Source of the DNA: Polyangia bacterium
Lineage (GTDB): Bacteria; Myxococcota_A; Polyangia; Nannocystales; Nannocystaceae
Assembly: GCA_030429545.1 (NCBI GenBank)
Contig: JAUIFF010000001.1
Coordinates: forward strand, 403,599-467,598
Direction of reading: 5' to 3'
Length of the DNA stretch: 64,000 nt
Below are positions 5,830 through 59,865 of this stretch, piece by piece. Under the pieces are notes generated by a model, which was not told the origin of the DNA, ran no database searches, and saw nothing but the letters and a program-made list of their open reading frames with translations. Numbering within the stretch: the stretch's first letter is position 1; every line of letters starts with the position of its first letter. A program made the translations under genes and the position numbers.

Positions 5830-6062
5830 GTCATTAGTTCAGCTGTTTGAGTGTTCAGTGTCAACGGATAGCCGGTAGAATGTGCGAAATTTAGGCGCGA
5901 AATAGCTTATAAACAAAGTTCTGAGGTTCACCACAGCGCGTGTGCGCGGGACTGATCGCGGTTGCGAGATCTCATCGTTTCACAATCCGGCCGGATGGAT
6001 TGGTCGCGTTGTTCAGGCACACTGGGGTGAACCGATGCCCCGATTCGTGCGTCCGGAGTCAC

Positions 6063-8863: not shown

Positions 8864-9054
8864 GCGTCACGAGTTGACTACTACGCGCCAAGTCGGGTCG
8901 TCTGGCACGCGGGCATTCATTTGTGGATACAACTTTTTGACCGGCGTGGTCGATGGTCGAGCTCATCACGCGGAGAGGTCTTGGTACCGAGTTGTCTAGG
9001 GGTCAGCCCGTTGGGGTCGGTCGTGAGGCACGCGGTCCTCGCTCGCTCACAGAT

Positions 9055-9615: not shown

Positions 9616-9733
9616 GGTTCGAATGCGAAAAGCCGAGCCCGTCGATCGGCGAAACGTTGGCGACCCTATAGGCAGGCACAACGTTTACGACCGATGCCAG
9701 GGGCACGGCTGCCATCAGGTATTGGTGATTGGG

Positions 9734-11068: not shown

Positions 11069-11251
11069 GATGGGGGGCGAAGGTTACCCGGCATCCCGTT
11101 GGTGTAAAGGGCTCGAAGGGCCCGGCGGTGGCGCGTGCTCACATCGCGCGAATGCGATGTGGTCGGTAGTTGCCGCTTTGTTGTGCACACGCGGATGTGT
11201 GCGCGGTTTGTCGGCGACGCGAGAAAAACCACTTCGTCACCGGTCGCAAAC

Positions 11252-17800: not shown

Positions 17801-19190
17801 ATCGCTGTGGAGCACCAGCGGCCCGGCGACCGTGGTTTTGCTGCCTTCGAGGCGGTTGCGGGCGTGCCAGACAAGCGGCGTGGCCGACCAAAGGTCGCGG
17901 TCGCGGTTGCTCGACTTAAACGTGAGCAGCGGCGGGATGGCCCAGGCTGAGCCCTTGCGGGCCTTGTCGCTGCGCTTGATAAATAACGGCGTCCACAGCT
18001 CGCGGCGATTGCCAAACTCGTTGGATTGCCAGTGAAAAAACGGGAACAGCGTGTGGTGCTTGAGCCCCTTGACCTTGTCGTAGCCGCCGACATACAGCGG
18101 AATACCGACATCGGTCTTGGTGAGGCCCTTGACCCGGCGCACGAAAAACGGTGCAGCTACAAGATATTTACGGTCGCTGAGCGGGTTGCCGTCTTTGAGG
18201 TCCTTGTTGCCGTACCACACCAATACGCCAGACATCGCCCGCAGGCTGTCGGGGGTTTTTTGGTGGTAGTGAAACGGGCCGACAACCAGGTTTTTGACGT
18301 GGCGGTTACCCCAGGCCCACACCAGCGGAAACTGGCCAAAGGTGTATTGCTCGCCAACCCGCTTGTAGCCCATCAGCAGGGGGATCGAGCCCCAGGCCGA
18401 GGTCCGCTCGCTAAACGAACCCATAAACAGGGCGAGCGGGGCGATGTAGCGGCGCTTTTTCTTGGCCTTGCTGTACCAGCCAAACGTCAGGGAGAGGTCG
18501 GCGTGGAACAGTTTCTCCGGGTGCTCTTTGGTGCCCTTGCGATGGATAAAAAGCGGCGGGAGGGTGAGCGCCCGGGTGCGGTGGGTGTTGTATTCCATGT
18601 CCACCCAAAACGGGGGGACGTTGCGCTTTTTGAGCAGCTCCGGGCGGACGTACTCGGGCTCGGGCGTGGTGCCGTCGGGGATCGGCAGGATGTCGTCGGG
18701 GTCCGTTGGCGAACCCATTGTAGATGCATCTTCATCCTCGTCGGGCTCGGTCTCGCGGGGGACGGCGATCGGTTGGGCCGAGGGCACCGGAATGGTCGGG
18801 CTGGGGCCAGTTGCGGGAATCGGTGTCGCCTCGCTCGGAGGTGCCGGATCGCTGCTCGGGACCGTGCCTGCGCCAGCACGCTCGGGTGCACTGGCATCGG
18901 CCCCGGTGCCGGCATTGGGCCCAGGCTCGCTACCTGAGGCGGTGGGAACTTCGGCGCCGGCAGGTGTTGTGCCGGGTGCATAGAGGTTGGCCCAGGTGTC
19001 GACCGGGCCGTGGTGGGCCAACAGTGACGTACCAAAGTAGTCGGGAGTGGCCGCGAGCGAGGTATCGACCTCGACCGCAAACGCGTGGGCTGTGGCGCTC
19101 CAAAGTGCGAGGCTCACCACCGCGACGAGCGGCAGTGGGCGGCGAGCAAAACTGGGAAGGGAGCGTCTCAGGAGCGTGGATTCCCGGAGT
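14894..19190 (-). CDS. Very large secreted repeat protein (~1,430 aa): ~50 tandem ~19-aa repeats with conserved P-[LIF]-[FLYW] core, C-terminal G/T/S/Q-rich low-complexity tail
   Basis: Track ORF 14894..19519; signal-peptide-like [21 protein letters not shown]|FAVEV near 19100-19190, so the true start is probably an alternative codon near 19190 (uncertain). Repeats such as [19 protein letters not shown] / [19 protein letters not shown]; C-terminus [24 protein letters not shown]. Confidence 0.7.
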
Positions 19191-19460
19191 GCGCACCCGG
19201 GATGGAGGAGGAAGTTGCAGCTGCGATGACCGGAAGTCTTGTGCGCGTCGACACCGATTGCTCGGGAGCGTCCACGGGCCGGTGGGAGATAGCGGACGGG
19301 GGTTTGCAGTGTCAACTGTCGAGATGCCTGGAGTTTTTCGGAATAGACCCGCGACCGGAGTTGTTTTTGTCGGCCTGCGCGAGATGCAAGAAGACACACA
19401 CACAGGTGATTGCTCCTGCGTGATTGACACCTCACAGCCACAGCGCTAAAGCCGTGCATT

Positions 19461-20102
19461 GTGGTTGCAGGATCGAAGCGAACCGAATTGGCTCCGGTCG
19501 ACACGTTGCGAGTCGACATCCCCGCACTGATTGGGCGAGGTCCCGGTCCCTATGAAGTAGATGTCGAGGTTGCCCCGGCGTGGGTGAAACAGGCGTTGGC
19601 GGGTACCGATGCCGAGGTCCAACAACTCGCCCAGCTGCGCGGAGAACTCAGCCTCCAGGGCAAGACAGCCCTGTTTCGCGGCCATTTTACCGCGGTCTTT
19701 GAGGTCCCCTGTGCCCGGTGTTTGGAGGGGGCGGCGGTCGATGGAGGCGGCGAGTTGTGTGTCCACTTTGAGCGCGGCGAGAGCAAGCGCCCAAAACTCG
19801 AAGAGGATGACGAAGAAGAGATCGACACCGGCTCACCCGAGCAATTCACGTTCGACGGGATCACACTCGATCTACGACCCATGCTCGTCGAGCACCTGGT
19901 GATGGCCTACCCGATGCGCGCGTTGTGTGAGCGCGGTGAGGATTGTCGGGGGTTGTGTTCGCAGTGTGGCGCCAACCTCAATTCCCAGGGGGAAGGGGGC
20001 CCGTGCTCAGCCTGTGCCGGGCAACAGGCGGCCCAACCTCCCGAGCCCGCGGGCAATGCCAGTTGGCAAGCTGCCCTGCGCAAGATCCGAGACAAGAGCT
20101 GA
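19461..20102 (+). CDS. yceD: YceD/DUF177 family protein (23S rRNA accumulation protein) preceding rpmF
   Basis: CARCLEG...CSQC / CSAC Cys pairs typical of DUF177; conserved position upstream of rpmF-plsX. Confidence 0.8.
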   Translation: MVAGSKRTELAPVDTLRVDIPALIGRGPGPYEVDVEVAPAWVKQALAGTDAEVQQLAQLRGELSLQGKTALFRGHFTAVFEVPCARCLEGAAVDGGGELCVHFERGESKRPKLEEDDEEEIDTGSPEQFTFDGITLDLRPMLVEHLVMAYPMRALCERGEDCRGLCSQCGANLNSQGEGGPCSACAGQQAAQPPEPAGNASWQAALRKIRDKS

Positions 20103-32528: not shown

Positions 32529-35255
32529 GTGGCCGCGATGACGGGCCCCAGACAGCATGGCTGGCTCTACGCCGCGATCGCCAAATTCTCGATCCGGCGG
32601 TGGCTATGGGTGATGGCCGGCCTTTTGGCGGTTGTGATCGTCGCCGGACTCGCGGTCCCACAAATTGGGATCACGACCAATCGGTTTGGCATGGTCAGCT
32701 CCGATAATCCCAGCCAGGCCACGCTCGAGGCCTATTTTGAGCGGTTTGGCTACCCGGATCTTCCCGTGGTGGTGGTCCGCGGGGCGGATGCCGAAACCCG
32801 GCAGCAGGTTGTCGACGAGCTGCAGGTTGCCTACGAGGCCATGCCGATCCTCGAGGGTCGGGTGCTTGCCCGGCTCGGGCCCGAGGCGATCGCAGAGTTC
32901 TTGTTTGTACAAGATCCCCACGTCATCGCCGAGCTGCGCGACATGGTTGGCTCGACCGACAAACCACTTCCCGAGCTCATTGAAGGCGGGTTGCCAGCAC
33001 TGATGGATGTGGTTGGCAATCGCCTGCAGGCGGGGCTCGACGGCAACGATGCCGGGCCGGCCCAAACCGAAGCGCAACAAACCGAGGGATTTCGCCAGCT
33101 CGGCAACATCGCCGAGGCCCTGTCACGCAACCTCCAAGACCAGGAAATCGACGAACAACTGCGGGCTTTGTCGGGTATGGACACGGTGCCCGAACGCCGG
33201 GGGATCGACGACCGCGGCTACTTTGTCGGCTGGAAAGGCGAGCATCACCTCGTCGCCCTGTTCCCGGTGTTTGCCAGCGGTGAGGTCGACGACATAGCTC
33301 CGGTGATCAACGAGATTCGGGCGACTTCAAGCGAGGTGCAGCAGCGGTTTGCCGACCAAGGTGTCGAGGTCATGGTCACCGGGCTGCCGGTGTTTTCGAC
33401 CGACGAGATGGCGCTTATCCGCCGCGGGATTTTGGTCAGCAGCGTCCTCACTGGCCTGGCGATCTTCTTGCTGCAGCTGTACGCGTTTCGTTCGTTGCGA
33501 ATGGCGATCTACGTGCAGTTGCCACTGGGGATCGGCCTGGTGTTGACCCTGGGCGCGGTGTGGCTGCTGTACGGCTATCTCACCATCGTGACCTCGAGCT
33601 TTATCGCCATCTTGCTGGGCCTTGGGATCGACTTCTCGATCCACATCCTCGCCCGGGCCAACGAGTTTCGCCGCGAGGGGCTGGAGGCCGGGCCGAGCAT
33701 GGTCGCGGCGATGCAGTCGGCGGGGCCGGGGGTGGTGATCGGGGCCCTGACCACGGTCATCGCGTTCTTGGCCACCATGACAACCGAGTTCACCGCGTTC
33801 GCCGAACTCGGGGTGATCACCTCGATCGGCCTGATCACGATGATGGTGGTGGCGTTGTTTGTGATGCCTGCGCTCGCCGGGCAGGGGTGGGGTGGCAATC
33901 GGTTCTACGAGGCCAAGATCCACGGGGTGTCGCAGTTACCGAGGTTTGTCCGCGCTGCCCCCAAAGTGCTGGTCGGGTTTGGCTTGGTGGCTGCGATCGC
34001 GGGTGCGGTGGCGTTCCCATCGGTCAAGTTCAACGCCCGCTACTTCGACTTCTTGCCCGATGAGTCACCGGCTGCAATCGCCCTCGACCTACTCGAAGAA
34101 GACGGGGCCATGAGCCCGGCGTTTGCCTGTTTTCAGGCGCCCAACTTCGAGGCCGCCCGCGAGAAGGCCGAGCAACTGCGCAAGCTCGACCTGATCGCCG
34201 ATGTCCAAACGCCGACAGATCTCGCACCCAAGTTGACGCCAGACCTGTTGTCGGAGTTGCGTGCCGGGTTTGCTGGCCTACCGCGTCAGCCCGACTTTGA
34301 GCGCCTGGCCAATGCCCCGGTGTCGGCGACTGACATTGCGACCAAGGTGACACGGATCGTCGACCTGTTTGACGAGGTTCGGTTTGAGCTCAAACGCAAC
34401 GACCGCGATACAGCGGCCGTCGATGCCGCGATCAAACAGTTTCGCCAACTCGCCGAGGTGCTGCGTGGCCTGCCTGAAGACGGTCAACCCCGGCTGCGAA
34501 AGATGCATCAGCAAATTTCGCGGATCATGGGACGGGCCTGGACGACCGGGCGGGCGATCGCCGAACGTGGAGAATATGCACCCGAAGACATGCCTGAGCT
34601 GTTCAAAGTGCGGTTTATGGCGGTCGATGGGTCTGGCGCAGTGGCGTTGTTCGCCACCCCCAACATCAATATTTGGGAACTGGAGAACGCCGAGCGGTTC
34701 CACCGGCAGCTCGAGACCGTCGACCCTGATGCGACCGGCTTTGCGGTGACCCTCCACGAGCACCACTCGATGATCTTTCACGGGTTTGGCCGGGCCGTTG
34801 TGGTTGCGGCGATCCTCGTGTTTTTGGTGGTCTTGGCCCAATTCCGCAATCTCAAAGACTCACTGTTGGTCATGTTCCCAGTCGCGTTGGGCTGGTCGTG
34901 GATGATCGGGACGATGGCGCTGTTCAGCATACCGCTCAACGTCGTCAATATTGTTGTATTGCCACTTGTTGTTGGGATCGGTATCGATGCCGCTGTGCAC
35001 GTGATGCACCGTGCACGCCAGTCGGCCGAGACCCATGGCAAGGCCCGACTTTCAGACCTGCTCGAAGGAACAGGAGCTGCTGTCTTGCTATCCTCGCTGA
35101 CGACGATTTTTGCCTTCGCCGGGCTTATCGTCGGGGCCGAGTATGGTGGGATGTTGAGCCTGGGCCTGGCGATGATGATCGGGGTTGGCAGCTGTCTATT
35201 TGCCTGTGTGGTGGTGCTGCCTGCTCTGCTCGTGTGGCTCGGGCGAGCCGAGTAG
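32529..35255 (+). CDS. MMPL/RND-superfamily transporter (12 TM, two periplasmic loops)
   Basis: 908 aa; two SSD/MMPL transmembrane blocks (GLGIDFSIHIL..., GIGIDAAVHVMH...). Confidence 0.8.
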   Translation: MAAMTGPRQHGWLYAAIAKFSIRRWLWVMAGLLAVVIVAGLAVPQIGITTNRFGMVSSDNPSQATLEAYFERFGYPDLPVVVVRGADAETRQQVVDELQVAYEAMPILEGRVLARLGPEAIAEFLFVQDPHVIAELRDMVGSTDKPLPELIEGGLPALMDVVGNRLQAGLDGNDAGPAQTEAQQTEGFRQLGNIAEALSRNLQDQEIDEQLRALSGMDTVPERRGIDDRGYFVGWKGEHHLVALFPVFASGEVDDIAPVINEIRATSSEVQQRFADQGVEVMVTGLPVFSTDEMALIRRGILVSSVLTGLAIFLLQLYAFRSLRMAIYVQLPLGIGLVLTLGAVWLLYGYLTIVTSSFIAILLGLGIDFSIHILARANEFRREGLEAGPSMVAAMQSAGPGVVIGALTTVIAFLATMTTEFTAFAELGVITSIGLITMMVVALFVMPALAGQGWGGNRFYEAKIHGVSQLPRFVRAAPKVLVGFGLVAAIAGAVAFPSVKFNARYFDFLPDESPAAIALDLLEEDGAMSPAFACFQAPNFEAAREKAEQLRKLDLIADVQTPTDLAPKLTPDLLSELRAGFAGLPRQPDFERLANAPVSATDIATKVTRIVDLFDEVRFELKRNDRDTAAVDAAIKQFRQLAEVLRGLPEDGQPRLRKMHQQISRIMGRAWTTGRAIAERGEYAPEDMPELFKVRFMAVDGSGAVALFATPNINIWELENAERFHRQLETVDPDATGFAVTLHEHHSMIFHGFGRAVVVAAILVFLVVLAQFRNLKDSLLVMFPVALGWSWMIGTMALFSIPLNVVNIVVLPLVVGIGIDAAVHVMHRARQSAETHGKARLSDLLEGTGAAVLLSSLTTIFAFAGLIVGAEYGGMLSLGLAMMIGVGSCLFACVVVLPALLVWLGRAE

Positions 35256-35451: not shown

Positions 35452-35943
35452 TTAGCGCGCTCGCAGGCCCTTTTCTTTGATGGGCTGGTCGGTGTTTGCC
35501 GTTCCTGCGGTTTTGGTGTTGCCGACCCCCTTGGGCTTGGCCGCTGCTTTTTTGGCGCCGAAGGTTGAGTTGCTCGGGTTGCCTGCGTCACCGGATTTTG
35601 CAGTTGAGACGGTCGAGCCGGTGTCCGAAGGTGCGGCTGGACGGTTGCTGCCCGCAGCGGCACCGCCATCGGCGTCGGTGTTGGGTGTCTCGTTAGAACT
35701 CGGAGTGTCGTCGGCGGGAGCTGGTGCCGGGGTTGGGCTTTTGCCCTTATCCATGTCGGGTGTTGCAGCCGGAGCTTTACCAGGTGAGCGGCCGGGGCTT
35801 CGCCCGGTTTTGGGAGTGCGTCCCTCACTCGAGCTCGGAGCCTTGGAGCCTGTCGAAGCAGAGTAGGAGAAGGAGCAACCCGGAAGCCCAAAGCTGGCGA
35901 GTGTAACGGCAAGAATGAAGGAAGCAGAACGGGTTTGTGGCAT
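35452..35943 (-). CDS. Putative lipoprotein, low-complexity S/T/P/A/K-rich
   Basis: N-terminal ILAVTLASFGLPGC lipobox-like signal; GAGGAA SD 5 nt upstream of ATG; rest low complexity. Confidence 0.45.
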   Translation of the reverse strand: MPQTRSASFILAVTLASFGLPGCSFSYSASTGSKAPSSSEGRTPKTGRSPGRSPGKAPAATPDMDKGKSPTPAPAPADDTPSSNETPNTDADGGAAAGSNRPAAPSDTGSTVSTAKSGDAGNPSNSTFGAKKAAAKPKGVGNTKTAGTANTDQPIKEKGLRAR

Positions 35944-36288
35944 AGGTTCCTCGCTTGTCGGGGATGGGGGACGCGGGGTCAGGTGTGATATTCACGCGTG
36001 TTTGCCCGCCGCTGTCAAATCTATCTCGCACGGCCGGGGAAGTTTTTGCCCCCGCACTTGATATTTTCGCTCTGGGTTGAGGTGTGGATCTGAGCGGGCG
36101 CAGCGAGCGATATCAAGATTCTTCCAAACCGGTCCTTGGGGACAGCTTCGAAAGGTGCCTTAAAAAGCCGGCTGGATGGGCCATAACTACTAAATTTTGA
36201 ATCTACTGGACAACTACAGGGGGGCAGGCGCTAGCGTCAATCTAGCTTTTATGGGGCACGTTTCGTGCCGGGAGGGGATGGGATTGAC

Positions 36289-37098
36289 ATGACACGACAG
36301 AAAACCGACGAGCAACGCAAGCGGCAAATCCGGGCCGCCGCCACTCGATGCTTCGTTCGTCGGGGCTTCGCGGCGACGCGACTCCTCGACATTGCGCGAG
36401 AAGCGGGGTTGAGCAAAGGCGGAGTTTATTTTCATTACAGAGCAAAAGAAGCACTGTTCCACGATATTCTCGATGCCCAACTCGACGCCCTCAAACGGCG
36501 ATGGAGTTTTCAGCCAGGAACCGACCAGCCGGCAGACCTGCTGCTTGGGACCCTCGTACGTGCACACGTCCAGGAGTTGGCCAACGAACCCGACGAAACT
36601 CGCTTGTGCAACTTGTTGGTCACGATGGCAGTACAAGAGCCTGACTTCCGCACCAAACTCGATAGCGCCTTTCGCGTGACCCGCAATCTGTATCAAGAGG
36701 TGATTGCCCGTGGATTAGCATCTGGCGTGTTTCATGGCCCCGATGCCGGGCAAATGGCAATAGCCGTGCACGGCTTTGTTCAGGGCCTGGCCGCATGTTC
36801 GGCAACCGACGAGCACGGGAAGTTGCCGATGTCGGCCGACGCCGCGGCCCGTCTTGCGTTGACGATGTGTGGGGCAAATCCCGATTGCCTGCCAGCACCG
36901 GCACCCGTAGTGACAGCGCCAAGTGACACAGACACTGCGGACACTGCGTCGCCTGACGAAGGGACTCCCGACGGGGAGGGTACGCTCGCGGCCGATGCGA
37001 ATGACACAACTGCCGACGCCCCGGAGTCCTCAGACGAACAGGCATCGAATGCGTCGCCGGGTGATGCACCCCCCGATTCGAACGAAGCGGCAAACTAG
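36289..37098 (+). CDS. TetR-family transcriptional regulator with acidic low-complexity C-terminal tail
   Basis: RQIRAAATRCFVRRGFAATRLLDIAREAGLSKGGVYFHY = TetR HTH. Confidence 0.85.
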   Translation: MTRQKTDEQRKRQIRAAATRCFVRRGFAATRLLDIAREAGLSKGGVYFHYRAKEALFHDILDAQLDALKRRWSFQPGTDQPADLLLGTLVRAHVQELANEPDETRLCNLLVTMAVQEPDFRTKLDSAFRVTRNLYQEVIARGLASGVFHGPDAGQMAIAVHGFVQGLAACSATDEHGKLPMSADAAARLALTMCGANPDCLPAPAPVVTAPSDTDTADTASPDEGTPDGEGTLAADANDTTADAPESSDEQASNASPGDAPPDSNEAAN

Positions 37099-37165
37099 TT
37101 CGGCCCCCCAGCCGGGATCGTCAACACCGCGTGACAGCCAAGCGCTGCTTTCGCGGTGTTGTTGT

Positions 37166-38390
37166 TTACGGCGACCAAAGCTTGACGCCGGCGATACCCG
37201 AAACGCCATCGCCACCGGGTGGGGTGAGAAGCTTGTATGAACAAACATCCCCGCGGGTACCGAGTTCGACCAGGTTTGCCAGGGTTGTCAGCACCGCCCC
37301 GCCACTTGGTCGGCCACAGATCGGGTCGTGCTCGCGGCAGCGTTGGCCCAGTTGTTCGGGGCGTCCGCTGACAAGCTCGGCAAGCAGCTGACGATCCCGG
37401 GCCTCGACCGTGTCGTAGTCGGCCGGTGTTGCGCGCCCACCAAACGCAGCACCGGCGTGGCTACACTCGGCCGCACACCAAAACAACACACGTCGTCCGC
37501 TGGTCAGGCGCTCCATCGCCGCGAGAAATTCATCGACCTGCGGTTGCTGGGCCCGACTCAATACCGTTTGCCCGCACAAGACTGGAAGGACAGGTGGACA
37601 TGATGCCCCGTAGATGCGGTGCAACAGCAACACCTGGAACTCGAGACTGGTCGCCTGGCGAAACCGAATCTCTTCGCGGGTGACCCACGGGACATCTTCA
37701 CACAGGGTCTCCACCAACTCGCTGACCGGGCTGGCACCGAGGGGAGATACCAGTTTTTTGGCTGTTGTTACATACGGCAGCAGGCCGGGAGCATGATCGG
37801 TGGCGAGCACAACAATGCAGTCGACAGCCCCGGGCAGTGGCAGCTGATCGAGCGTGGCTCGCAGCGTGTCGGCGACCTGTGTCGGGGGGTGGTGGGGGCA
37901 GACAACAGCGCCGACCGCTGGCGTCCCGAAGTGCTTGTGTGGGGCCGCGAACACATCGTCGAACAGGGCACCGAGTTGCGTGGGGTCGTCCGGGTAGAGC
38001 ATGCCCGCGTGCCGGGGTTGGAGTGTGGGGGATGCTAAAAATTCCCGCAGGATCGTCGCAAACTTGGCCCGAAAAACCTCGTCGTCGAGCATCCCGTTGT
38101 CGCGCAGGTCGGCGACGAGGTCGGCGATTTCCTGTGTAGATACATCGAGCTTGCCGCGCATCAACAACGATTGACGAACCTGGGCGGGTGTGCGCTGACC
38201 GTTGAGCAGGTCGAGGATGTCCACGGCAACCGCCGGCAGGGCAATCGTCTCGCTCACACCCAGCGGATCGCGCAGGACAATGAACTGTTCGTCCCCACGA
38301 CGCAGCTGGTGACGTTCGAGTTTTCGCAACTTGTTGGGCACACTCGCGGGCACGCCCCACTGTGGCACGGCGAGGTCCGGCCGATCAACG
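37166..38390 (-). CDS. Fusion protein: PqqD/RRE-like N-terminal domain + MEMO1-like (AmmeMemoRadiSam system protein B-like) domain
   Basis: N-terminal FIVLRDPLGVSETIALPAVAVDILDLLNGQRTPAQVRQSLL...EIADLVADLRDNGMLDD resembles PqqD-family RiPP recognition elements; central HAGMLYPDDPTQLGALFDDVF matches the Memo1 AGxxYP motif. Start uncertain (in-frame GTG/TTG candidates 38370-38400); the track ORF start 38614 overlaps the upstream gene. Confidence 0.6.
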
Positions 38391-38529
38391 CACCTTGATT
38401 TTTCGCTGGTGTGGACGAGCCGGAGCTTTGCAGCAGTTCTGGGGCCGCATGGAGTTGTCGTGCGGAGGGCCGGAGCTTTGTCGCGGCACGAACTGCCGGG
38501 GGCCGCCGGGAGTTGCGGTTGGCGACCTG

Positions 38530-40089
38530 CTACTCGCAGGTTGGCGACGCGCCGATTCTGACAAGAGCCGCCCGGGCGTCCGCTGCCATCTCGGTGATGT
38601 CGACGGTGTCGCATAGGCTCTCGACGACTGCTGGTGTCGCCAACCCACCACGCCCGAGAACTTGGATCAGTCGCCGGGCGGTGGCGATGTCGGGGGTTTT
38701 ATCGAGGGCCTTGGCGACCTGGTCGGCGCCGCCGTTGCCGAACTGCTTGACGAGTTGCCAGCCAGCGGCGGCCCGCCTGCCATCGTCGAGTTGATCGTTG
38801 TGCAACAGCTTGGTGAGTTGGCGGCGGGCACTATCGTCGCGGCAGCGCCCGAGCGCGAGGATTGCCGCCCGGCCCACGGTTCCATCGTCGTCGCCTTTGC
38901 GCAGTCCGGCGATGCCTGCCAACTTGGAGACATGTCCTGATGTACATGGCGGGAGCACGCGACCGATCGCTGCGGCCCGCACCTGTGGCCAGGGGTGTTG
39001 TTGGCTGATCTCGAGCCAGTCGTCGCCGTGCAAGGTCGCCACGCGAAAGGCCTCCGTGGCGACCCGTGGCTGGGCGGCCCCGGTGAGGTTGAGTGCATCG
39101 GCAACCCGCTGGGCTGCCGACTCGCCGAGACCTTTGAGTGCGAGCCACCCGAGGATTTCACTGGCTTGGATGTTGCGGCGGTTCGCCGCTAAATGTGTAT
39201 GAGCAATTTTTTCGAGGTGGCCCTCGGCCTCCGGATCGGTCGGAGCCAGTGTCGCCAGGCCGCGGATCGCCACCACCTGAATCACAAACTCGGGTCCACC
39301 CGAAGCCGCGGCCGGGGCCAGGGCCACGAGTTTTTGGCGAAACGTCGGGTCCTGCCGCGGGGTCAGTGCGCTGCGTAGGCGAATGAGCGAAGCGAGGCGC
39401 GCGGGGTCGTCGGTTGTGAGTTCGTGGTCGACACCGGCAAGCAGTGCGGCCCGCTCCTGCGCCCGCGAGGCCGCCCGTTTGCGCAGCGCCAAATGCAAGG
39501 TCCGCCGCAGGTTTTGGGAGCCACGTCCGACCAGGGCCAAAAGGCCGCCGATCTGCTCAACCGGATAGACTTCGACGAGGTCGCTGAGCAACAGGCCGCG
39601 GATGGGTTCGTCGAGTTTGCGATCGCCGACCAGCGCTGTCAGGACCGGCAGAGCAGCGGCTCCCTGCTCGCGTAGGAGGGCACGCCAGGGGACGAGGTCT
39701 TCAGGTTTTGCCTGGGGGTCGAGCGCGGTTCGTCGCAGCTGCGTGGCAAAGACTTGTAGATCCTCTGGCCGGCGAAACTGGCCGAGGACCGCGAGCAAGC
39801 GCCCGCGCGCGGCTGGTCCGGGTGGTGGGACGCCTTGCAATCGCGCGATGATGGCCGGGGCCGCAACCAGCGGATGGTCTTCGAGCCGCCGTCTGGCCTC
39901 GAGGTAACTTCGATCGGTTTTGGTCAGCAGCGTGTTGAGGTCGCGCTCGCACTGCTCGGCAGCATACGAGCCCTGAGCGGGCTGGGAAGACTCCGCTGTC
40001 GGGGCCGGCGTCTCCGGAGGGGAGGACACGGTCGTCGTCATCAAAAACGCGGTGAGCAACCACTGAGACACCCCGTGAAGCTGCCACAA
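38530..40089 (-). CDS. Secreted HEAT/PBS-lyase-like repeat protein
   Basis: N-terminal signal-like segment; repeated A-rich helical units (AAAIGRVL, AAILALGRC) typical of HEAT-like repeats; 519 aa. Confidence 0.6.
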   Translation of the reverse strand: MWQLHGVSQWLLTAFLMTTTVSSPPETPAPTAESSQPAQGSYAAEQCERDLNTLLTKTDRSYLEARRRLEDHPLVAAPAIIARLQGVPPPGPAARGRLLAVLGQFRRPEDLQVFATQLRRTALDPQAKPEDLVPWRALLREQGAAALPVLTALVGDRKLDEPIRGLLLSDLVEVYPVEQIGGLLALVGRGSQNLRRTLHLALRKRAASRAQERAALLAGVDHELTTDDPARLASLIRLRSALTPRQDPTFRQKLVALAPAAASGGPEFVIQVVAIRGLATLAPTDPEAEGHLEKIAHTHLAANRRNIQASEILGWLALKGLGESAAQRVADALNLTGAAQPRVATEAFRVATLHGDDWLEISQQHPWPQVRAAAIGRVLPPCTSGHVSKLAGIAGLRKGDDDGTVGRAAILALGRCRDDSARRQLTKLLHNDQLDDGRRAAAGWQLVKQFGNGGADQVAKALDKTPDIATARRLIQVLGRGGLATPAVVESLCDTVDITEMAADARAALVRIGASPTCE

Positions 40090-40201: not shown

Positions 40202-41821
40202 ATGATCGCTTGTGTGGACAGGACACAAACCGATAGCTCACCCGAGAACGGGGCGATCGATGCCTTTGGCGCGACTCGCAATGAGCCGTCGCTGTCCGAT
40301 GCTCGCGCACAATCAACCCGGGTCCCGCGAAAGATCGGCCGGTTTACGATCCTCGAGTCGATTGGTGCGGGCGCCATGGGGGTGGTCTATTCGGCCTACG
40401 ACACTCAGCTCGATCGCAAGGTCGCGATCAAAGTTTTGCGCGAGGACACAAGTGACATCCGCACGCGTCAACGGTTGCTGCGAGAAGCTCAGGCGCTGGC
40501 CCGGGTCACGCACCCCAATGTTGTGACGGTCCACGAGGTCGGCGAGCACGACCAACAACTCTATCTCGCCATGGAGTTTATCCAGGGGCAGACGCTTGGT
40601 GAGTGGGTGGGGGAGCAGGGGCCACAGCTCGCCTGGCAGGACATACTCAAGATGTTTGTATGTGCAGGAAATGGGCTGGTCGCCGCCCATCAGGCCGGCC
40701 TGGTCCATCGCGATTTTAAGCCGCACAACGTGCTTGTACACGGGCAGCGGGCCACGGTTGTCGACTTTGGCCTGGCGCGCCTGGCCTGGGCAGGACCTGC
40801 ACAGGTCGACGAACAACCGACTGATGATCCCGAAATGCCTGATGTCTCGGCCCGCGAGCTCGGCGAGCTACAAACAATTGTGTCTGCAAAAGAAACGGGT
40901 GTCTCGGGCGATGCCGTGGTCGCCGAAATTTCGAGCTCCGGGGGTGCGCTGCACAGCCCGCTCACCCGTGCCGGGGCGGTTCTAGGCACCCCTGCATACA
41001 TGGCAATCGAGCAATTTCGCGGTGAGGAGGCCACGGCTAAGAGCGACCAGTACGCCTTTTGTGTGGCGCTATTTGAGGCCCTCGAAGGTCGTCGCCCGTT
41101 TGTCGGCAACACGATCTACGAGCTTATCGACCGGGTGGGGCGCGGACCAACCAAAGACCTGTGGGCACAGCCGTATCCCCAGTGGCTGCGCGAGGCCATC
41201 AACCGCGGGCTCTCGCCCGATCCCGACGCGCGCTGGCCGACGATGTTGGAGCTGCTACAGGAAATAGATGATCATACAAATGCTCGGGATTCCCATGAGC
41301 AGCGTCGCCAGCTGCGAAAAATCCTCCTCAACCTGGCGATCTTGCCCCCGGCGTTTTGGGTTGTGCTCGAGTTGATCGTCGACCCCGAGCGCGGCCTGCA
41401 ACCGGTCGACACCATCTTTATTTGGCTCACGCTCGCGGTCTTGGTTTGCATCTCCCTGGTGATTTGGCGTCGGGCAGCGTTTCGCCCGGGTACCAACCGC
41501 TGGGTCTCGTTTTTGCTGCTGGTCCTACTCGCGTTTATCGGCATCAACCGGATAGGCTCAACATTTCTCGGACAGGACGTTCACGAGATTCTGTTTTCCG
41601 ACCTCCTCCTGTTTTCGATTGCATTTGCCATAGCCACCGGCAGGGGGGGCCTGTCGATGTTGGGGGCTTCGCTGTTTACGTTACTCGGCGCCGTCCTGAT
41701 CTTGGCGCTGCCACAGCACGCGGACACAATTTACTCGCTGTTTAGCGGGTTGTTGGTCCCGTTTTTGATCGTCGGGTTTGTGCGCAAGACACCCGTGGCT
41801 CGCCCGGACTTGTCAACATGA
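40202..41821 (+). CDS. Ser/Thr protein kinase with C-terminal multi-pass transmembrane region
   Basis: [48 protein letters not shown]; 4-5 hydrophobic helices in last 170 aa. Confidence 0.85.
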   Translation: [539 protein letters not shown]

Positions 41822-41967: not shown

Positions 41968-43368
41968 CTAGCGCTCCATCATGTCCATGATTTGCTTCCT
42001 GGATAGCACGTAGCTCATCAGCAGTGCGCGGCGGTCACTGGCTTGGGCAACGTCGAGCAGGCGCAACAGGTCGTCGTTGCCGTCGTCATCGCTGGCCTCG
42101 TTGGCGATCAGCCGGCGCGACAGCGAGACCAGCATGTCGGCCTTGATCGGGTTGTTGGTGGGCATGCGGATGAACAGGCCGAGGTACTCATGGACCACCC
42201 CGGCCATCTGAATGCCTTCGGGGCGCGGCAAAAACCACTCGGCCAGGCGTCGTCGCGACTTTTTCATGCCGCCAAAGCCGAGGTCACGGACCGCCTGTTC
42301 GGTCCCGGCACCAAAAAAATGGGCGTCCTGGGGGACCTGTCCAAGCAGATTACGCAGCTCGCGGTTCATCGACTTTTTACCCTCGTGACTGCGGGTGACC
42401 ACGCCGCGCAACACATCGGCTGTCCCCAGGGTCAGCTCATCGAGGTCGAGACGCGCGACCAGTACCTGTTGCCCGTTGTGTTGCCATCCGGGGATGGCCC
42501 AAATTTTGTCGCCGGCGGGTTTGAGGTCGCCGCGAGCGGCCGCCTGCTCGAGCTGTTCGTCGAGCCCGGGAATCGCATAAAACGCGATCGCGCGCGCGGG
42601 GTTTTTGTGATTCATGGCAAACGACATACGCCGCCAATTTGCATATTCAACCTGGCCAAAGGCCGCGACGATCTTGCAGGTGCCCTCGACAAACACAGGC
42701 TCGACTTGGGGCGGTTTTTTTTGCTTCGACCTAGCCTCACGCTGCTTGCGACGCTCCTCGGCTTTTTTGCGCTTAGCGAGGTTTTCGCGGTGAATTTTGG
42801 CAATCTCGGTATTGACCGAAAGCCCCGATTTTTTGGCGCGCCGCTGGGCCCGACGCAACAGCCACAGGTCCTTGATTTGGGCCTGGCGGTTTTCGTCGCA
42901 AGTGGTTGCGTATTCAAATAACTCGGGCGGCAACTTACCGGTCAGCGGTGCATCCTTGACCGCGACGATGTCACCTCCGCCGTAGATATCGAAGTCGGCC
43001 GGAAGGTAGCGTGCCGAGTAGGCGAGGTGGCCGTAGTGACTGCGCTTACGGCCGGCCTCCCAAAACACCCGCAGCATCTGTTTGATATCGCTGTCGCGGC
43101 CAGCGGCGGCGTAGAGCTTGACGAGGCGCAGCAGCCCATCGGTCACCAGCGCCCGCTCGTTGGTCGGCTCGTCGATCAGGTCCTCAAAATTCTTGATCGC
43201 GCACTTGGGCCGCTGGGTCGTGTCCATGCACCGAACACCCGCCTTGTGGAGTTTTTGCGCGGTCGTCTCAAATCGCTTGGGTTGTTGCTCGCCCGCGTGC
43301 GCCGGTGTGAGCAGCCCGAGGGCGAGGCTCAAGCCGCAGGTCACAATGGGTAGGCGAGGGGTAGTCAC
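41968..43368 (-). CDS. Secreted hypothetical protein (466 aa) with K/R/E-rich coiled segment
   Basis: Signal peptide LPIVTCGLSLALGLLTPAHA; no recognised catalytic motif. Confidence 0.5.
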   Translation of the reverse strand: MTTPRLPIVTCGLSLALGLLTPAHAGEQQPKRFETTAQKLHKAGVRCMDTTQRPKCAIKNFEDLIDEPTNERALVTDGLLRLVKLYAAAGRDSDIKQMLRVFWEAGRKRSHYGHLAYSARYLPADFDIYGGGDIVAVKDAPLTGKLPPELFEYATTCDENRQAQIKDLWLLRRAQRRAKKSGLSVNTEIAKIHRENLAKRKKAEERRKQREARSKQKKPPQVEPVFVEGTCKIVAAFGQVEYANWRRMSFAMNHKNPARAIAFYAIPGLDEQLEQAAARGDLKPAGDKIWAIPGWQHNGQQVLVARLDLDELTLGTADVLRGVVTRSHEGKKSMNRELRNLLGQVPQDAHFFGAGTEQAVRDLGFGGMKKSRRRLAEWFLPRPEGIQMAGVVHEYLGLFIRMPTNNPIKADMLVSLSRRLIANEASDDDGNDDLLRLLDVAQASDRRALLMSYVLSRKQIMDMMER

Positions 43369-44369: not shown

Positions 44370-46850
44370 TTACTTTGACTCCCGTTGTTGGGCCCTGCGT
44401 TTGGCCAGGCGCTTTTGCTTGCGTTCCCACTTTTTGTGACGGTGCTTGATCCACGGTTTTTCGGCGCCCTCGGGTAGCAGCGGCAACCCGTAGCGCTCAC
44501 GCATCCAGTTGGGAAGTTGGGCCTCGGGGGCCGTTGCACACTCGGCGGTGTGGATCACCCGTTGTTTGCCAAACTTCGCCAGCTGGATCTCGGGGATGTA
44601 GTAGCCACGGGTCTTGACCTGTTCGGGCGTCGGGATCCGGTAGTTCATCTTGACGATCTCGACTTTTTTAGGTGCCTCGCCGCCGTTTTGCAGGGCCCAC
44701 TCGCGGCAGTGGTAACGCGCATGCCATTTGAGGTACCACGAGTTTTTGCCGTGACGCCGGCCGGTGATCCGGCGGTTCATCTTGCGCATGCGGTCGTTGA
44801 AGATCCATGGGATCGGTCGCTGCTCAGGTGCGTATACATCGGTGTTGAGGTCGTAGACCTCTCCGTCGGTGTCGTGCACCAGCACCCGCAAAAATGTATT
44901 GGAGCGCGGGGGATTGGGCGAAAACATGTTCCACGACTGGGCGGTGTGGGTGTGTACCAGCCACCCGCGAAACGGCTTGGCGGCCTGCGTGCGAAAGGTC
45001 GAGAGGCAATCCTTGACCGGCAGGGTCCACACCGCAACCGCGGTGATGTGGTAGATGATCAGTGTATTGGCAACAAATCGGCCGAGCGGCCCGTAGGCCC
45101 ACGGTAGGCTGTCTGTCGCCAACGGGGCCTGACGCCGGGCCCGAATCGCGGCCACCACAGCGCCGGCGACAAGCGTACCGCCTCCGAGCCACAATAGCGG
45201 CGAGGTCCAGGTTTTTGGCCCGAGAACCTTGGTTGCCACAGCCCCGGCGAGACAGCCAAGCGTCACCACGAGTACCCACCCGGGCACTTGGGCCCGGTCG
45301 CGTGCGAGGCCCGGTGCACTCGGATGTTGGGCCCACACAAACGTGGTGTCGACAACGTTGCGGCCGGCGAGGCGATTGAGCCCACGACCGAGGCGCTGGA
45401 CGATCAGACCAACCTCGTGCCCGTTGAGGAACACGACATAGGTCAGCATCATGATCGGGGCGAACATGCCGATGTTCATCAGCGCCATGATGTGGCCGTG
45501 AAACAGCAGCCCCAGGGTCAAAAACACCCGGCGGCCGAGCACCCAGCTACAAAACCAATCGAGGTCGAGGGTGTAGCGGCGGCCGGCGAGGGTCACGTTA
45601 AACGGCCGGTTGCGCAGGCGGTACAGACCCCAGCCGACAACTGCCATCAGAGCAACCCAGGCGACCCCAAAGATCCATTGTACATGCACCAGCGGTAGGC
45701 TCGCCTTGGCCGGGTAGTGAACCGGCCACGCAACCTCGGCCACCGCCAATGCAAGCAGGCCGAGGACGACCCATAGGCTGCGGCGAAGCACGCGTTGGCC
45801 CAGGGTTGTCGGGGCAAATTTTTGCCGGTGTGCCCAGCGGAGGATCAACCCGACAATCACCAAAAAGAAGCTGATTTGCCAAACGTGGACCGTCCACGTC
45901 ATCACCCGAAACACGTTGGTGCCAAACACCTGCGACAGCAGCTGTGGCGGCACGCGGTAGAAGTGGTCCATGTTGAGGGCGTAGTAAAGCGAGTCGCCAC
46001 GCATCCACACGTGCCCGGTTTTGGCCGAGCCGGTAAACAGGTAGATGGTTGCGACTTGGAGCATCATGAGCAGCCGCGGCCAGGCCGGTATCAGCCGGTA
46101 GATGGGCTGCAGGGCTTGTTTGGCGGTCTCCTGGCCGTCGGGTTTTGCGACCTGCTCACCGGTTTGCAGCAGCCCCTTGCGCCGCAGTTTGCGGCAACGC
46201 AGCCAGTTGTCGATGCTGTAGGCATGGCCTGATTTGGCGAACAGCAGGTAGAAGAACATGCACGAATAGACCGCGTCGGTGCCCTCCATAAACAGCGGGT
46301 TGCGGGCACACAGGCCGTGCCACATGAAAAAGCTCAGGACCCCTGTCACCCGCGCGCGAAAGCCCAGGGCAAATGCCAGGGTCACGGCTTCAAAGATGAT
46401 GAGGTACGTCCAAAACGCGGTGGGCGAGTCCCAAAAAAACAGCGGCGAGAGCTTGTTGCCCTTAAAAAAGTTCCACATCGCCTGCGTGTCGAAAAAGCCT
46501 GCTGGCTCGCCCGCACGGACATCGCCGAAGCCGGCGAACTGCTTCTTGGCGAGGACCTCCCGCGCCGTGTCGGTAAAGAAGATGCCCTCGTCGGTAAACA
46601 GGTAGTGGAAGTGCTCCCACAGACCGTTCACGTTGAGCAAAATGGCGATCGCAAACAAAAACCGAAAGATGCCGATGGTCCGCGGATCTTCGAGGCGCAA
46701 CCACAGGCGGCGCCACTGCTCGCGGTAACTGATCATCAACAGCCCAAACACAATCGCGCAGGTCAGCAACAACCAGCCAATTGTTGGCGACAGGGCGACG
46801 GCCTCGGTATTGACAATGCGGTCGGCAAGAAAACTATGAAAAGCCAACAT
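44370..46850 (-). CDS. HTTM-domain (vitamin K-dependent gamma-carboxylase-like) integral membrane protein, 826 aa
   Basis: N-terminal multi-TM region with IGIFRFLFAIAILLNV... pattern typical of HTTM; large C-terminal soluble region with K/R-rich tail. Confidence 0.55.
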   Translation of the reverse strand: MLAFHSFLADRIVNTEAVALSPTIGWLLLTCAIVFGLLMISYREQWRRLWLRLEDPRTIGIFRFLFAIAILLNVNGLWEHFHYLFTDEGIFFTDTAREVLAKKQFAGFGDVRAGEPAGFFDTQAMWNFFKGNKLSPLFFWDSPTAFWTYLIIFEAVTLAFALGFRARVTGVLSFFMWHGLCARNPLFMEGTDAVYSCMFFYLLFAKSGHAYSIDNWLRCRKLRRKGLLQTGEQVAKPDGQETAKQALQPIYRLIPAWPRLLMMLQVATIYLFTGSAKTGHVWMRGDSLYYALNMDHFYRVPPQLLSQVFGTNVFRVMTWTVHVWQISFFLVIVGLILRWAHRQKFAPTTLGQRVLRRSLWVVLGLLALAVAEVAWPVHYPAKASLPLVHVQWIFGVAWVALMAVVGWGLYRLRNRPFNVTLAGRRYTLDLDWFCSWVLGRRVFLTLGLLFHGHIMALMNIGMFAPIMMLTYVVFLNGHEVGLIVQRLGRGLNRLAGRNVVDTTFVWAQHPSAPGLARDRAQVPGWVLVVTLGCLAGAVATKVLGPKTWTSPLLWLGGGTLVAGAVVAAIRARRQAPLATDSLPWAYGPLGRFVANTLIIYHITAVAVWTLPVKDCLSTFRTQAAKPFRGWLVHTHTAQSWNMFSPNPPRSNTFLRVLVHDTDGEVYDLNTDVYAPEQRPIPWIFNDRMRKMNRRITGRRHGKNSWYLKWHARYHCREWALQNGGEAPKKVEIVKMNYRIPTPEQVKTRGYYIPEIQLAKFGKQRVIHTAECATAPEAQLPNWMRERYGLPLLPEGAEKPWIKHRHKKWERKQKRLAKRRAQQRESK

Positions 46851-58647: not shown

Positions 58648-59865
58648 GTGCGTTCAGTGCCTGGGTGGTTTCGACCGAGTTTGGTGGGAATGGTTCTCAA
58701 CGAGCGTTACACGCTTTCGCACCTTATAGGGCGCGGTGGTTCGGCGACGGTCTATCGCGGTGTCGACCGCAAGCTCGGATCGCCGGTCGCAGTCAAGGTG
58801 TTGCACCCGGAGCTTGCGCGCGACATTACGCGCCGCCGGCGGTTTCAGCAGGAGGCCGTGTTGTCGGCCAGTCTGCACCACGAAAATTTGGTCACGGTGA
58901 CCGATATCGGAGCCGACGACGGGCCGGGTGACGAGCAGCGGATCTACTTTGTGATGCCGCTTATCGATGGCGAAACCCTCCGCGATTTGGTCATGGCGGG
59001 ACCTATCCACTGGCTGCGCTGCGTCGAGCTGACCCGGCAGATCTTTCAGGCCGTCGCCGTGTTGCATCAAAACGGAGCGATTCACCGCGATCTCAAGCTG
59101 ACCAACTGCATGGTCGTGACCCGCAGCGATGGCTCCGACTGGTTGCGCCTCCTCGATTTTGGCCTGGCCAAGGTTGTCCGTGAGTCGTCGTTTGCCCAGC
59201 CTGTCGACACCACGTCCTCGGGGATCATGGGAACCGACACCTATCTCGCTCCCGAGCGGATTGTGACCAAAACTGCGGACGAGCGCGCCGATATCTACTC
59301 GGTTGGGATCATGCTCTACGAGCTCCTGACCCGCCGTCCTCCGTTTGTCGGCAATCAGTATGAAGTGCTCCACGGGCATGTCAGCCAGCCGCCGCCCGAC
59401 CTGCGCAAGCGCTGCAAGGGTCGGGACATTCCCGACTCGCTGGTCGCGTTTGTCCAGCGGTGCTTGGTGAAAAACCCGAACGACCGCTATCAAGATGCGC
59501 ATACATGTATTTCCGAGCTCGACAGGGTGCTCGCCTACGATGGTTTTGGCCAGCGCACGGTCGCCGGTTTCATCCAAGCTGGGGCCCAGGCCGCGCGGGC
59601 TGGGCTGACTGCATTCGTCGGTCGTGACTTCAAACAGGCGGCCGCCTGTGCCTCCGATGCCGCGCGTGCCGACCCGAGTTGGCGCCCCCTCGAGCAGTTG
59701 CTTGCACAGGCAATTTCAGAAGCTTCCGCTGAGTCCCAAACCCCAGTTGCCGGGTCCGGGTCCGAGGCTCAGCCGCACTCGGTTGCGCTGTTCAAAGCGG
59801 GCGAGATGCCGGTGGTGAAGTCCCAACATCAGGGCATCAAAGACGAGCAGGAAGCAGCCCTGTAA
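58648..59865 (+). CDS. Ser/Thr protein kinase
   Basis: IGRGGSATVYRGVD, VAVKVL, IHRDLKLTNCMV, DFGLAK, GTDTYLAPE. Confidence 0.8.
   Translation: MRSVPGWFRPSLVGMVLNERYTLSHLIGRGGSATVYRGVDRKLGSPVAVKVLHPELARDITRRRRFQQEAVLSASLHHENLVTVTDIGADDGPGDEQRIYFVMPLIDGETLRDLVMAGPIHWLRCVELTRQIFQAVAVLHQNGAIHRDLKLTNCMVVTRSDGSDWLRLLDFGLAKVVRESSFAQPVDTTSSGIMGTDTYLAPERIVTKTADERADIYSVGIMLYELLTRRPPFVGNQYEVLHGHVSQPPPDLRKRCKGRDIPDSLVAFVQRCLVKNPNDRYQDAHTCISELDRVLAYDGFGQRTVAGFIQAGAQAARAGLTAFVGRDFKQAAACASDAARADPSWRPLEQLLAQAISEASAESQTPVAGSGSEAQPHSVALFKAGEMPVVKSQHQGIKDEQEAAL

Follow-up and report, generated by a model that had tools for sequence, protein, structure and literature searches.

The gene at positions 37166..38368 on the minus strand of the window (the whole stretch of 64,000 nucleotides analysed here) belongs to a large family of proteins of ~400-410 aa, present in many bacterial phyla and already catalogued, in which an RRE/PqqD-like domain is fused to a Memo domain; the window copy is part of a branch of this RRE-Memo family that is specific to Nannocystaceae. 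The protein is best explained, with chances that I put at about even, as a cytoplasmic RRE-Memo metalloprotein that docks part of a peptide chain encoded elsewhere. By analogy with other RRE-fused enzymes, the winged-helix domain would use strand addition to dock a peptide segment in extended form, the adjoining part of the docked chain would be held in the Memo pocket, and the held chain would be modified, or merely retained, by a His/His/carboxylate metal centre. The pocket of human MEMO1 is known to bind a peptide (PMC7694686).

The start codon, GTG 38368, gives a protein of 400 aa and was placed by means of the open reading frame (ORF) list, a start-codon scan and the database protein P0001 (400 aa), which is 100% identical and begins at the same codon; the stop codon occupies 37166-37168. 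The maximal ORF (37166..38614, minus strand) would encode 482 aa, its first ~82 codons running over the end of the upstream HEAT-repeat gene and the spacer that follows it. The N-termini of homologues in alignment A1 begin two residues ahead of 'KLRK', so that GTG 38341 or GTG 38353 are equally possible starts. The protein is cytoplasmic and has no signal peptide.

Family membership and earlier descriptions

A profile of the N-terminal domain retrieved 776 clusters (defined at 50% identity) at E<=1e-10, a number that rose to 1812 when the threshold was relaxed to E<=1e-3; among the matches listed, almost all were Memo fusions of ~400 aa in which the domain occupies residues 1-103, or truncated pieces, and they came from several phyla. 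A further 897 clusters were found at E<=1e-20, with source names that include Poribacteria, Latescibacteria and Thermodesulfobacteriota. UniRef contains Nannocystis proteins of the family, and the nearest genome locus (68% identity) is that of an uncultured Nannocystaceae MAG; the genome scan for related loci used an alignment of 22 closer sequences.

Memo is conserved from bacteria to humans and has been linked to disease, and to my knowledge it has no agreed biochemical function. Stand-alone Memo proteins are common, eukaryotic MEMO1 being one of them, so that the original prediction was mistaken in regarding an isolated Memo as an undescribed arrangement. The same holds for its view that the fusion was undescribed: Memo-like proteins (PF01875) appear among the new RRE fusions of Bregman et al. 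(mSystems, Nov 2025; PMC12710340, section 6 and Table S1), who supply the HMM RREFam044 'Memo_RRE'. Judged by its description, RREFam044 has the same architecture as the window protein, and the fusion is listed there without substrate, context or chemistry. The prediction had also named an outcome that would count against it, namely a domain universal among bacterial Memo proteins and devoid of peptide partners; the domain is not universal, though a very large Memo subfamily spanning several phyla carries it at the N-terminus, and no peptide partner was seen in 118 loci.

The database name of the window protein, AmmeMemoRadiSam system protein B, is an over-annotation. The protein does score above the TIGR04336 cut-off, but it departs from the AmmeMemoRadiSam system (TIGR04335/04336/04337) in its extra N-terminal region of 115 aa and in the lack of AMMECR1 and radical-SAM activase genes near its own. 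Pfam matches to AMMECR1 or Radical_SAM were found neither within +-10 kb nor in the 27 large ORFs of the window, in line with the isolation first noticed, and the two genes were likewise not found in related loci. A literature search on the function of AmmeMemoRadiSam found nothing functional.

A large bacterial Memo subfamily with a built-in peptide-recognition domain offers a contextual hint, of which there are few, that Memo may act on peptide chains, and this domain would make bacterial RRE-Memo proteins tractable models for finding the Memo substrate.

The N-terminal domain

Residues ~13-96 (38081..38332, minus strand) form a winged-helix domain with strands at 18-24, 27-33 and 42-45 and helices at 48-53, 61-70 and 78-90, and with two family-specific invariant motifs, L-R-D-P (R33, D34, P35) and D-G (G57). 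On its own, the window protein stays below the threshold of PF05402, the PqqD family (E=0.003-0.008, 17-18.4 bits against a cut-off of 23.4). Within the family, 25 of 36 N-domains match PF05402, the best of them at E=7.9e-9, and the family profile of the domain matches the RRE of PaaA (5ff5, E=1.7e-5) and PqqD (5sxy, E=4e-3). Despite the weak single-protein score, these matches make the assignment solid as far as sequence comparison reaches, and the homology to PqqD/RRE families that had been proposed from the residue pattern is borne out. From fold and sequence homology only, I infer that the domain binds peptides.

The best structural matches of the domain are leader-binding RREs. The winged helices of PKMT2 and MINA53 score nearly as high, and PF21782 is matched by 14 of the 36 family N-domains, as would be expected if the winged helix were an appendage with a role in structure, dimerisation or regulation and Memo acted on a small molecule (isoprenoid, sterol) or on a nucleotide base. 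Such a role would also suit the AlphaFold2 model of the full-length protein (pLDDT 95, pTM 0.91), according to which the two domains form one rigid protein, the N-domain being fixed and not flexibly tethered. They are joined by a linker helix (residues 97-112; 38033..38080, minus strand) modelled at pLDDT >90, which bears the conserved alignment columns 'F-R...W...H..F'. Burroughs and colleagues reportedly proposed, in J Biol Chem in 2019, nucleotide bases or isoprenoids as substrates of Memo; were Memo to act on these, the N-domain would have a different role. The appendage explanation is nonetheless rather unlikely, for the sequence homology points specifically to PqqD/RRE families and it is the leader-binding RREs that head the structural matches.

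The Memo domain and its metal site

The Memo/LigB-fold domain (residues 117-400; 37169..38020, minus strand), of the LigB/PCAD superfamily, opens with the motif A-G-x-x-Y-P (A121, G122, Y125). It matches PF01875 at E=6.1e-17 (62.1 bits against a cut-off of 27, with positions 1-250 of the 269 in the profile covered) and TIGR04336 AmmeMemoSam_B at 52 bits (cut-off 26). A Foldseek search with the AlphaFold2 model, a structural check of the kind originally suggested, placed MEMO1 first (7l5c, E=4e-14, TM 0.74), with aminophenol and LigAB dioxygenases next; the Memo core recognised at the outset is thereby confirmed. With human MEMO1 (3bcz, 7l5c, 7kq8) the window protein shares the fold, the A-G-x-x-Y motif and the histidines His49, His81 and His192, as also seen in an HMM alignment (E=9e-16), whereas identity is 17%, MEMO1 has no N-terminal winged helix, and its Cys244 and Asp189 are replaced by Ser and Glu.

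The equivalents of the metal-site residues are H159, H192, E243, E301 (Asp189 in MEMO1), H304 (His192 in MEMO1) and S355 (Cys244 in MEMO1). The three histidines of MEMO1 are kept as H159, H192 and H304, and the five-residue MEMO1 site, which includes Asp189 and Cys244, is thus matched in part. Among the 50 sequences compared from the Nannocystaceae clade, Cys244 is replaced by Ser in 50/50 and Asp189 by Glu in 50/50, and the E-H-S motif has lost its Glu-His pair. Of 40 members from the wider RRE-Memo family, by contrast, 38-40 keep the canonical metal-site residues; with respect to the catalogued family, the window branch is set apart by Ser in place of the metal-site Cys, by Glu in place of Asp and by the missing E-H dyad. 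As read from the aligned sequences, this remodelling across the Nannocystaceae branch is a new detail.

Given the Ser-for-Cys change, the Nannocystaceae branch may be a poor metal binder and not an enzyme at all. Along the same line, the C244S variant of MEMO1 is deposited in the PDB as a 'metal binding site mutant' (7m8h, seen via Foldseek). A pseudoenzyme or adaptor limited to binding a peptide or protein, in the manner of MEMO1 as an adaptor, and to scaffolding another process would account for a clade-wide loss of residues that the wider family retains. It is, however, an unlikely account, since the residues that remain are strongly conserved: His159 (44/50), His192 (47/50) and Glu243, Glu301 and His304 (50/50 each) are enough for a His/His/carboxylate metal site, and mean column identity stays at 45-54% across the whole domain. 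The clade-wide Cys replacement could guide comparative biochemistry between the canonical and the Ser branch.

Genomic surroundings and possible clients

PqqD, TfuB1/TbiB1 (lasso peptides), PaaA, LynD and PbtF are found in biosynthetic clusters beside precursor genes, unlike the window gene. The 161-nt spacer between the HEAT-repeat and RRE-Memo genes (38369..38529, minus strand) was analysed with small-ORF lists, RNA folding and Rfam: it yielded no RNA element (fold z=-1.4, no Rfam match), and neither the spacer nor the flanks held a conserved small ORF in the window and 21-33 Nannocystaceae loci. Searches for ORFs of at least 18-25 aa, clustered by blastp, likewise revealed no conserved small ORF within 400-500 nt of RRE-Memo, whether in 33 Nannocystaceae or in 85 metagenome loci. 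The survey of homologous loci that had been put forward as a check of the peptide hypothesis hence came out negative across 118 loci. The small-ORF clusters that did recur were, every one, alternative-frame shadows of neighbouring conserved genes.

These results bear on the possibility of a RiPP-type maturase, in which the RRE recruits a dedicated precursor, Memo modifies it and neighbouring genes mature or export the product. The homology of the N-domain to bona fide RREs is compatible with it, and the authors of RRE-Finder regard the Memo fusion as a lead to new RiPP chemistry (PMC12710340). Also in its favour, a 39-aa ORF in one distant member (L008/L009) ends 1 nt ahead of the RRE-Memo start; this ORF has no relatives and was treated as chance. 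A maturase of this type is quite improbable, for besides the missing small ORF there is no recurrent protease, exporter or transporter, or second tailoring enzyme beside the gene in the 33 and 85 loci, and the gene is single and vertically inherited, amid housekeeping genes whose order is conserved across Nannocystaceae (queA-tgt-yajC-secDF on one side, HU-UDG-coaBC-rib on the other). A gene set among housekeeping genes does not resemble a RiPP cluster. In the wider family, too, RRE-Memo is usually a lone gene in such surroundings: the 85 metagenome loci have no universal neighbour, none occurring in more than 12/85, and Lon protease is the most frequent (11/85). In none of the lineages is the gene accompanied by a precursor gene, a protease or an exporter. 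For the docking protein preferred here, a protein tail or a peptide encoded at another locus is therefore a likelier client than a dedicated RiPP precursor.

The gene directly upstream on the same strand encodes a HEAT-repeat protein (38530..40041 from the annotated start, 503 aa, or 38530..40089 from TTG 40089, 519 aa; HEAT_2 E=2e-6). As originally described, the protein is predicted to be exported; in its homologues a Pro/Ala-rich stretch comes after a hydrophobic N-terminus, and a pair of C-terminal Cys is conserved. Further upstream lies S466 (41968..43368, minus strand), a 466-aa protein with a signal peptide, predicted to be secreted, for which no match was found in Pfam, NCBIfam, PADLOC or PDB sequences; its homologues are 43-71% identical and lie upstream of HEAT in 19/32 loci. 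The co-oriented order S466-HEAT-RRE-Memo recurs in these 19 of the 32 Nannocystaceae genome loci, with protein identities of 36-73%, and in 5 more HEAT keeps this strand but lies 5-7 kb upstream of RRE-Memo.

Such conservation might indicate that S466, HEAT and RRE-Memo, perhaps together with the kinase described below, form one module in which RRE-Memo modifies or chaperones both exported proteins before export. The notion is highly doubtful. In 10 loci DIV401, a divergent 400-aa gene detected by tblastn, lies directly upstream of RRE-Memo, so that HEAT is not adjacent, and in 5 of these HEAT is missing from the available sequence, three of the five contigs being short. The gaps measure 70-250 nt, too wide for translational coupling; the compartments differ, RRE-Memo being cytoplasmic and the other two exported; and HEAT, S466 and the kinase were not seen as companions of the wider family in the metagenome contexts. 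The conservation of HEAT and S466 as neighbours is confined to Nannocystaceae, some members of which do not show it. The association with HEAT on which the original prediction built holds inside this family, although HEAT is separated or missing in about a quarter of the loci; it is a lineage-specific neighbour whose relevance to RRE-Memo function is unproven. A peptide- or protein-modifying activity, as then proposed, is reasonable from the RRE fold, while the idea of a new type of module is unsupported.

A further variant combines the remodelled metal centre with these neighbours: a neofunctionalised Nannocystaceae enzyme would modify a protein client and not a RiPP, the likeliest clients being S466 and HEAT before export, through a linear motif read by the RRE. 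This is a long shot. If true, an RRE would here serve the modification of proteins, and a Memo domain would have its first assigned chemistry.

The Ser/Thr protein kinase that had been noted as divergently transcribed upstream is indeed present (40202..41821, plus strand; Pkinase E=5e-37), carries a hydrophobic region at its C-terminal end and runs divergently from the HEAT gene. In the window it is inserted between S466 and HEAT, and it is not found at the corresponding position in the 32 related loci, save that the closest relative (L015) retains a 64-aa remnant. The kinase is incidental to RRE-Memo, and its proposed part in a module falls with this distribution. A second Ser/Thr kinase is encoded elsewhere in the window. 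In a PADLOC search for defence systems, Memo, HEAT, S466 and the lipoprotein mentioned below had no match, and the matches of the kinase were to generic kinase domains. With the fusion already catalogued, no local substrate gene, and kinase and HEAT not being general partners, the value of the window itself is modest.

On the other side, a TetR-family regulator (36265..37098, plus strand; TetR_N E=3e-14) is convergent with RRE-Memo and neighbours it in 28/32 Nannocystaceae loci. It probably belongs with the lipoprotein (35452..35943) and the MMPL transporter (32529..35255) beyond. Homologues of the latter give weak Pfam matches to Patched and sterol-sensing domains, and its place three genes from RRE-Memo might favour a Memo domain acting on a sterol or another small molecule; yet it is on the other strand, behind the TetR gene, and is missing from the contexts of the wider family. 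A scan for promoters and terminators gave nothing above chance except a terminator-like hairpin at 37141-37160 (plus strand), downstream of the TetR gene.

Architecture of the RRE-Memo protein

The minus-strand open reading frame ending at 37166 comprises 482 codons at most, of which codons 1 to about 82 cross the 3' end of the neighbouring HEAT-repeat gene (HEAT; 38530..40089, minus strand) and the following spacer, and are non-coding in appearance. A start-codon scan past the HEAT stop gives in-frame GTG codons at 38368, 38353 and 38341, a 400-aa database protein (P0001) is identical to the version beginning at GTG 38368, and aligned homologues start two residues ahead of a conserved K-L-R-K; the gene, here RRE-Memo, is therefore best placed at 37166..38368, its true start probably lying within 38341-38368. 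The protein begins M-D-R-P-K-L-R-K and is without a signal peptide. Residues ~13-96 form an RRE-like winged helix, residues 97-112 the helix that links it to the next part, and residues 117-400 a Memo domain, all encoded on the minus strand.

Taken singly, the N-terminal domain matches PF05402 (PqqD) weakly (17-18 bits vs a cut-off of 23.4; E 0.003-0.008). The RRE-like identity put forward in the original prediction is settled instead by family-level matches: PF05402 is matched by 25 of 36 homologous N-domains (best E 7.9e-9), and the N-domain family profile finds in the PDB the PaaA RRE (5ff5, E=1.7e-5) and PqqD (5sxy, E=4e-3; 3g2b, E=0.098). Modelled separately, residues 10-111 (pLDDT 93) form three strands and then three helices. 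The predicted Memo core is confirmed too, both PF01875 (E=6e-17; 62 bits vs 27) and TIGR04336 (52 bits vs 26) exceeding their cut-offs, and HAGMLYP, proposed as the Memo signature, falls at the beginning of the Memo profile, opposite HAGSWYT of MEMO1. In an AlphaFold2 model built from 54 homologues (pLDDT 95, pTM 0.91) the C-terminal 285 residues resemble human MEMO1 (7l5c; TM 0.74, E=4e-14), LigB-type extradiol dioxygenases being more distant matches. RRE-Memo is a rigid fusion of an RRE-like winged helix and a Memo domain.

Size and earlier description of the family

Searching 1.84 billion cluster representatives with the N-domain profile returned 1812 proteins at E<=1e-3 (776 at E<=1e-10); among the 150 matches listed, most have 371-463 aa, with the domain spanning residues 1-103. 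The 12 shorter matches inspected all enter the Memo domain or end at or before its start, and so appear to be fragments, truncated or frameshifted, of RRE-Memo genes. With a profile of more distant members, another 897 clusters (90% identity) were retrieved at E<=1e-20; their sources, where named, are Poribacteria, Latescibacteria and Thermodesulfobacteriota. The N-domain thus marks out a large Memo subfamily that spans several phyla; bacterial Memo proteins do not all carry it, since the usual form of ~270 aa is without it.

Neither novelty claimed originally stands: the fusion has its own model, RREFam044 'Memo_RRE', in Table S1 of the RRE-Finder survey of Bregman et al. (mSystems 2025; PMC12710340), as a catalogue entry only, with neither substrate nor chemistry given, and a lone Memo without AMMECR1 and radical-SAM partners is not unusual, eukaryotic MEMO1 being an example. 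The RRE-Memo of the window belongs to a known family, one that is catalogued but uncharacterised.

Among database proteins, P0123 (2076 aa, lysine-rich) carries 16 tandem repeats ('LLALLDGTKTISQVKETI'), each matching alpha1-alpha3 of the N-domain profile (overall E=5e-26). In the metagenomic fragment P0110 the RRE-Memo N-domain follows without a break on an APH/choline-kinase-like C-terminus ('HGDLRLDHFYI'), and in P0233 (986 aa) the RRE and Memo's first ~40 residues are followed by a long TPR-like region; whether as rare fusions or as artefacts of assembly or annotation, either origin is possible for both.

A remodelled metal site in Nannocystaceae

Active-site positions were aligned for MEMO1, 50 proteins of the Nannocystaceae clade and 40 of the wider family. 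Histidine prevails at MEMO1 His49 (wider family 40/40, clade 44/50; H159 in the window), His81 (40/40, 47/50; H192) and His192 (40/40, 50/50; H304), as does glutamate at the end of E-H-S-x-E (40/40, 50/50; E243). The Glu-His of that motif (wider family Glu 39/40, His 40/40) is lost from the clade, where Ala or variable residues stand (A239 and T240); MEMO1 Asp189 (Asp in 40/40) is Glu in all 50 clade proteins (E301), and Cys244 (Cys in 38/40) is Ser in all 50 (S355). The clade is otherwise strongly conserved (mean column identity 54%); this clade-specific change of the active site looks like a fixed one rather than decay, and it is apparently new to the literature. A rival reading is that RRE-Memo of this clade may serve as a pseudoenzyme or adaptor.

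Genomic neighbourhood and possible client

The closest genome locus comes from an uncultured Nannocystaceae MAG (68% identity), and synteny was compared at 32 Nannocystaceae genome loci. Matches with a name include Nannocystis exedens, N. pusilla, N. punicea, N. radixulma, N. bainbridge, Paraliomyxa and Enhygromyxa. A convergent TetR gene lies downstream of RRE-Memo at 28/32. HEAT, a suggested partner, fares unevenly: the co-oriented order S466 (a 466-aa signal-peptide protein without known domain; 41968..43368, minus strand), HEAT, RRE-Memo occurs at 19/32 loci, and at 10/32 a divergent 400-aa gene lies directly upstream of RRE-Memo instead, with HEAT on the same strand 5-7 kb off in five and not found in the available sequence in the other five, three of these contigs being short. 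A rival reading, in which S466, HEAT and RRE-Memo would form one functional module, is favoured by the first arrangement and weakened by the second.

The Ser/Thr kinase (40202..41821, plus strand), noted originally as flanking the pair, sits between S466 and HEAT in the window only, among the 32 loci and the window itself. At its place the closest relative (L015) has a 64-aa kinase-like remnant (6000-6191, minus strand), a sign that the gene was either gained recently in the lineage of the window or lost in the relative. The window holds a second Ser/Thr kinase (58648..59865); in this group a kinase nearby is therefore to be expected by chance. The kinase and, largely, HEAT are not part of the RRE-Memo finding.

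HEAT homologues have hydrophobic N-termini, with Pro/Ala-rich stretches behind them, and close with two conserved cysteines ('A-L-C ... C' in the last 1-20 residues; window 38530-38610; L013-L041); both features are consistent with export, and the pair with a disulfide of an exported protein. Housekeeping genes surround the locus (queA-tgt-yajC-secDF on one side, MMPL-HU-UDG-coaBC-rib on the other), and neither an AMMECR1 nor a radical-SAM gene was found within 10 kb on either side of RRE-Memo or among the 27 large ORFs of the window that were scanned.

Across 85 metagenome or MAG loci of the wider family, any one neighbour family is found in 12 at most, and the most frequent are lineage-specific: ABC-transporter ATPases (12/85, varying distance and orientation), Lon protease (11/85, same strand; directly upstream in 10, gap 18-138 nt), Mrp/ApbC with a 99-aa DUF59 protein (7/85, upstream), a 96-aa membrane protein (7/85, downstream), a 79-aa coiled-coil protein (7/85, downstream, opposite strand) and a radical-SAM gene (6/85, variable distance). 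Four further long-contig loci have unrelated neighbours (opp transporter genes, ferritin, LigD, lpxB, his genes).

Open reading frames of at least 18-25 aa were collected from spacers and flanks of Nannocystaceae and wider-family loci and clustered. No conserved small ORF emerged, since every recurring cluster could be traced to a genuine neighbouring gene read in another frame, and the 161-nt HEAT-Memo spacer showed neither a significant RNA fold (z=-1.4) nor an Rfam match. The outcome that the original prediction itself named as counting against it, an N-domain universal in bacterial Memo proteins and lacking a peptide partner, largely holds: no partner was found and the domain is common at Memo N-termini, universality alone failing. 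No RiPP-like context surrounds RRE-Memo, and its neighbours are lineage-specific. A 39-aa ORF (MEILHQFMKTPLYSNVSDLRAHMRPEEIIAAYRLDRMSA; L008 1888-2007, L009 868-987), ending 1 nt before a distant RRE-Memo start, was rejected as precursor, being without relatives beside other family members.

Two analogies, one with RRE-fused enzymes and one with the peptide binding of MEMO1 in its corresponding pocket (PMC7694686), lead us to infer that the RRE-like domain would dock an extended peptide segment and hand it to the Memo pocket. As no precursor gene travels with RRE-Memo, a protein tail, or a peptide whose gene lies elsewhere, is the likelier client; the rival reading, a true RiPP maturase, requires a precursor that escaped detection in the ORF survey. 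On another rival reading, the winged helix would be structural and non-recruiting, on a small-molecule enzyme. Taken as a whole, the family still offers a sensible route to the unsolved function of Memo.

Lon lies directly upstream in one branch (L049-L052, L057, L061-L063, L066, L093; at 836 nt in L074), and this operon-like pairing might be a pointer to a protein client. In another branch (L102, L105, L112-L115, L125) RRE-Memo is directly preceded, on its own strand, by the genes for Mrp/ApbC (366 aa) and the 99-aa DUF59/SufT-like protein; PMC12710340 names DUF59 as the other 'unprecedented' RRE fusion partner. L045 and L046 have ferritin-like and FeoA genes close to RRE-Memo, and Ku and LigD (non-homologous end-joining) genes occur in two unrelated lineages (L010-L012, L045), directly downstream or about 3 kb off (3994-7361 in L010, 11167-12686 in L045).

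Elsewhere in the window, ORFs 14894-19519 (minus), 8921-11107 (plus) and 44370-46850 (minus), of 1541, 728 and 826 aa, have no Pfam match at E<=1e-4; the last, hydrophobic, is possibly multi-membrane-spanning. An MMPL/RND transporter gene (32529-35255, plus), whose homologues show weak Patched and sterol-sensing-domain Pfam matches, adjoins the TetR regulator, and a cytochrome P450 gene (51027-52376, plus) lies about 13 kb from RRE-Memo; some members of this bacterial family are known to make sterols.
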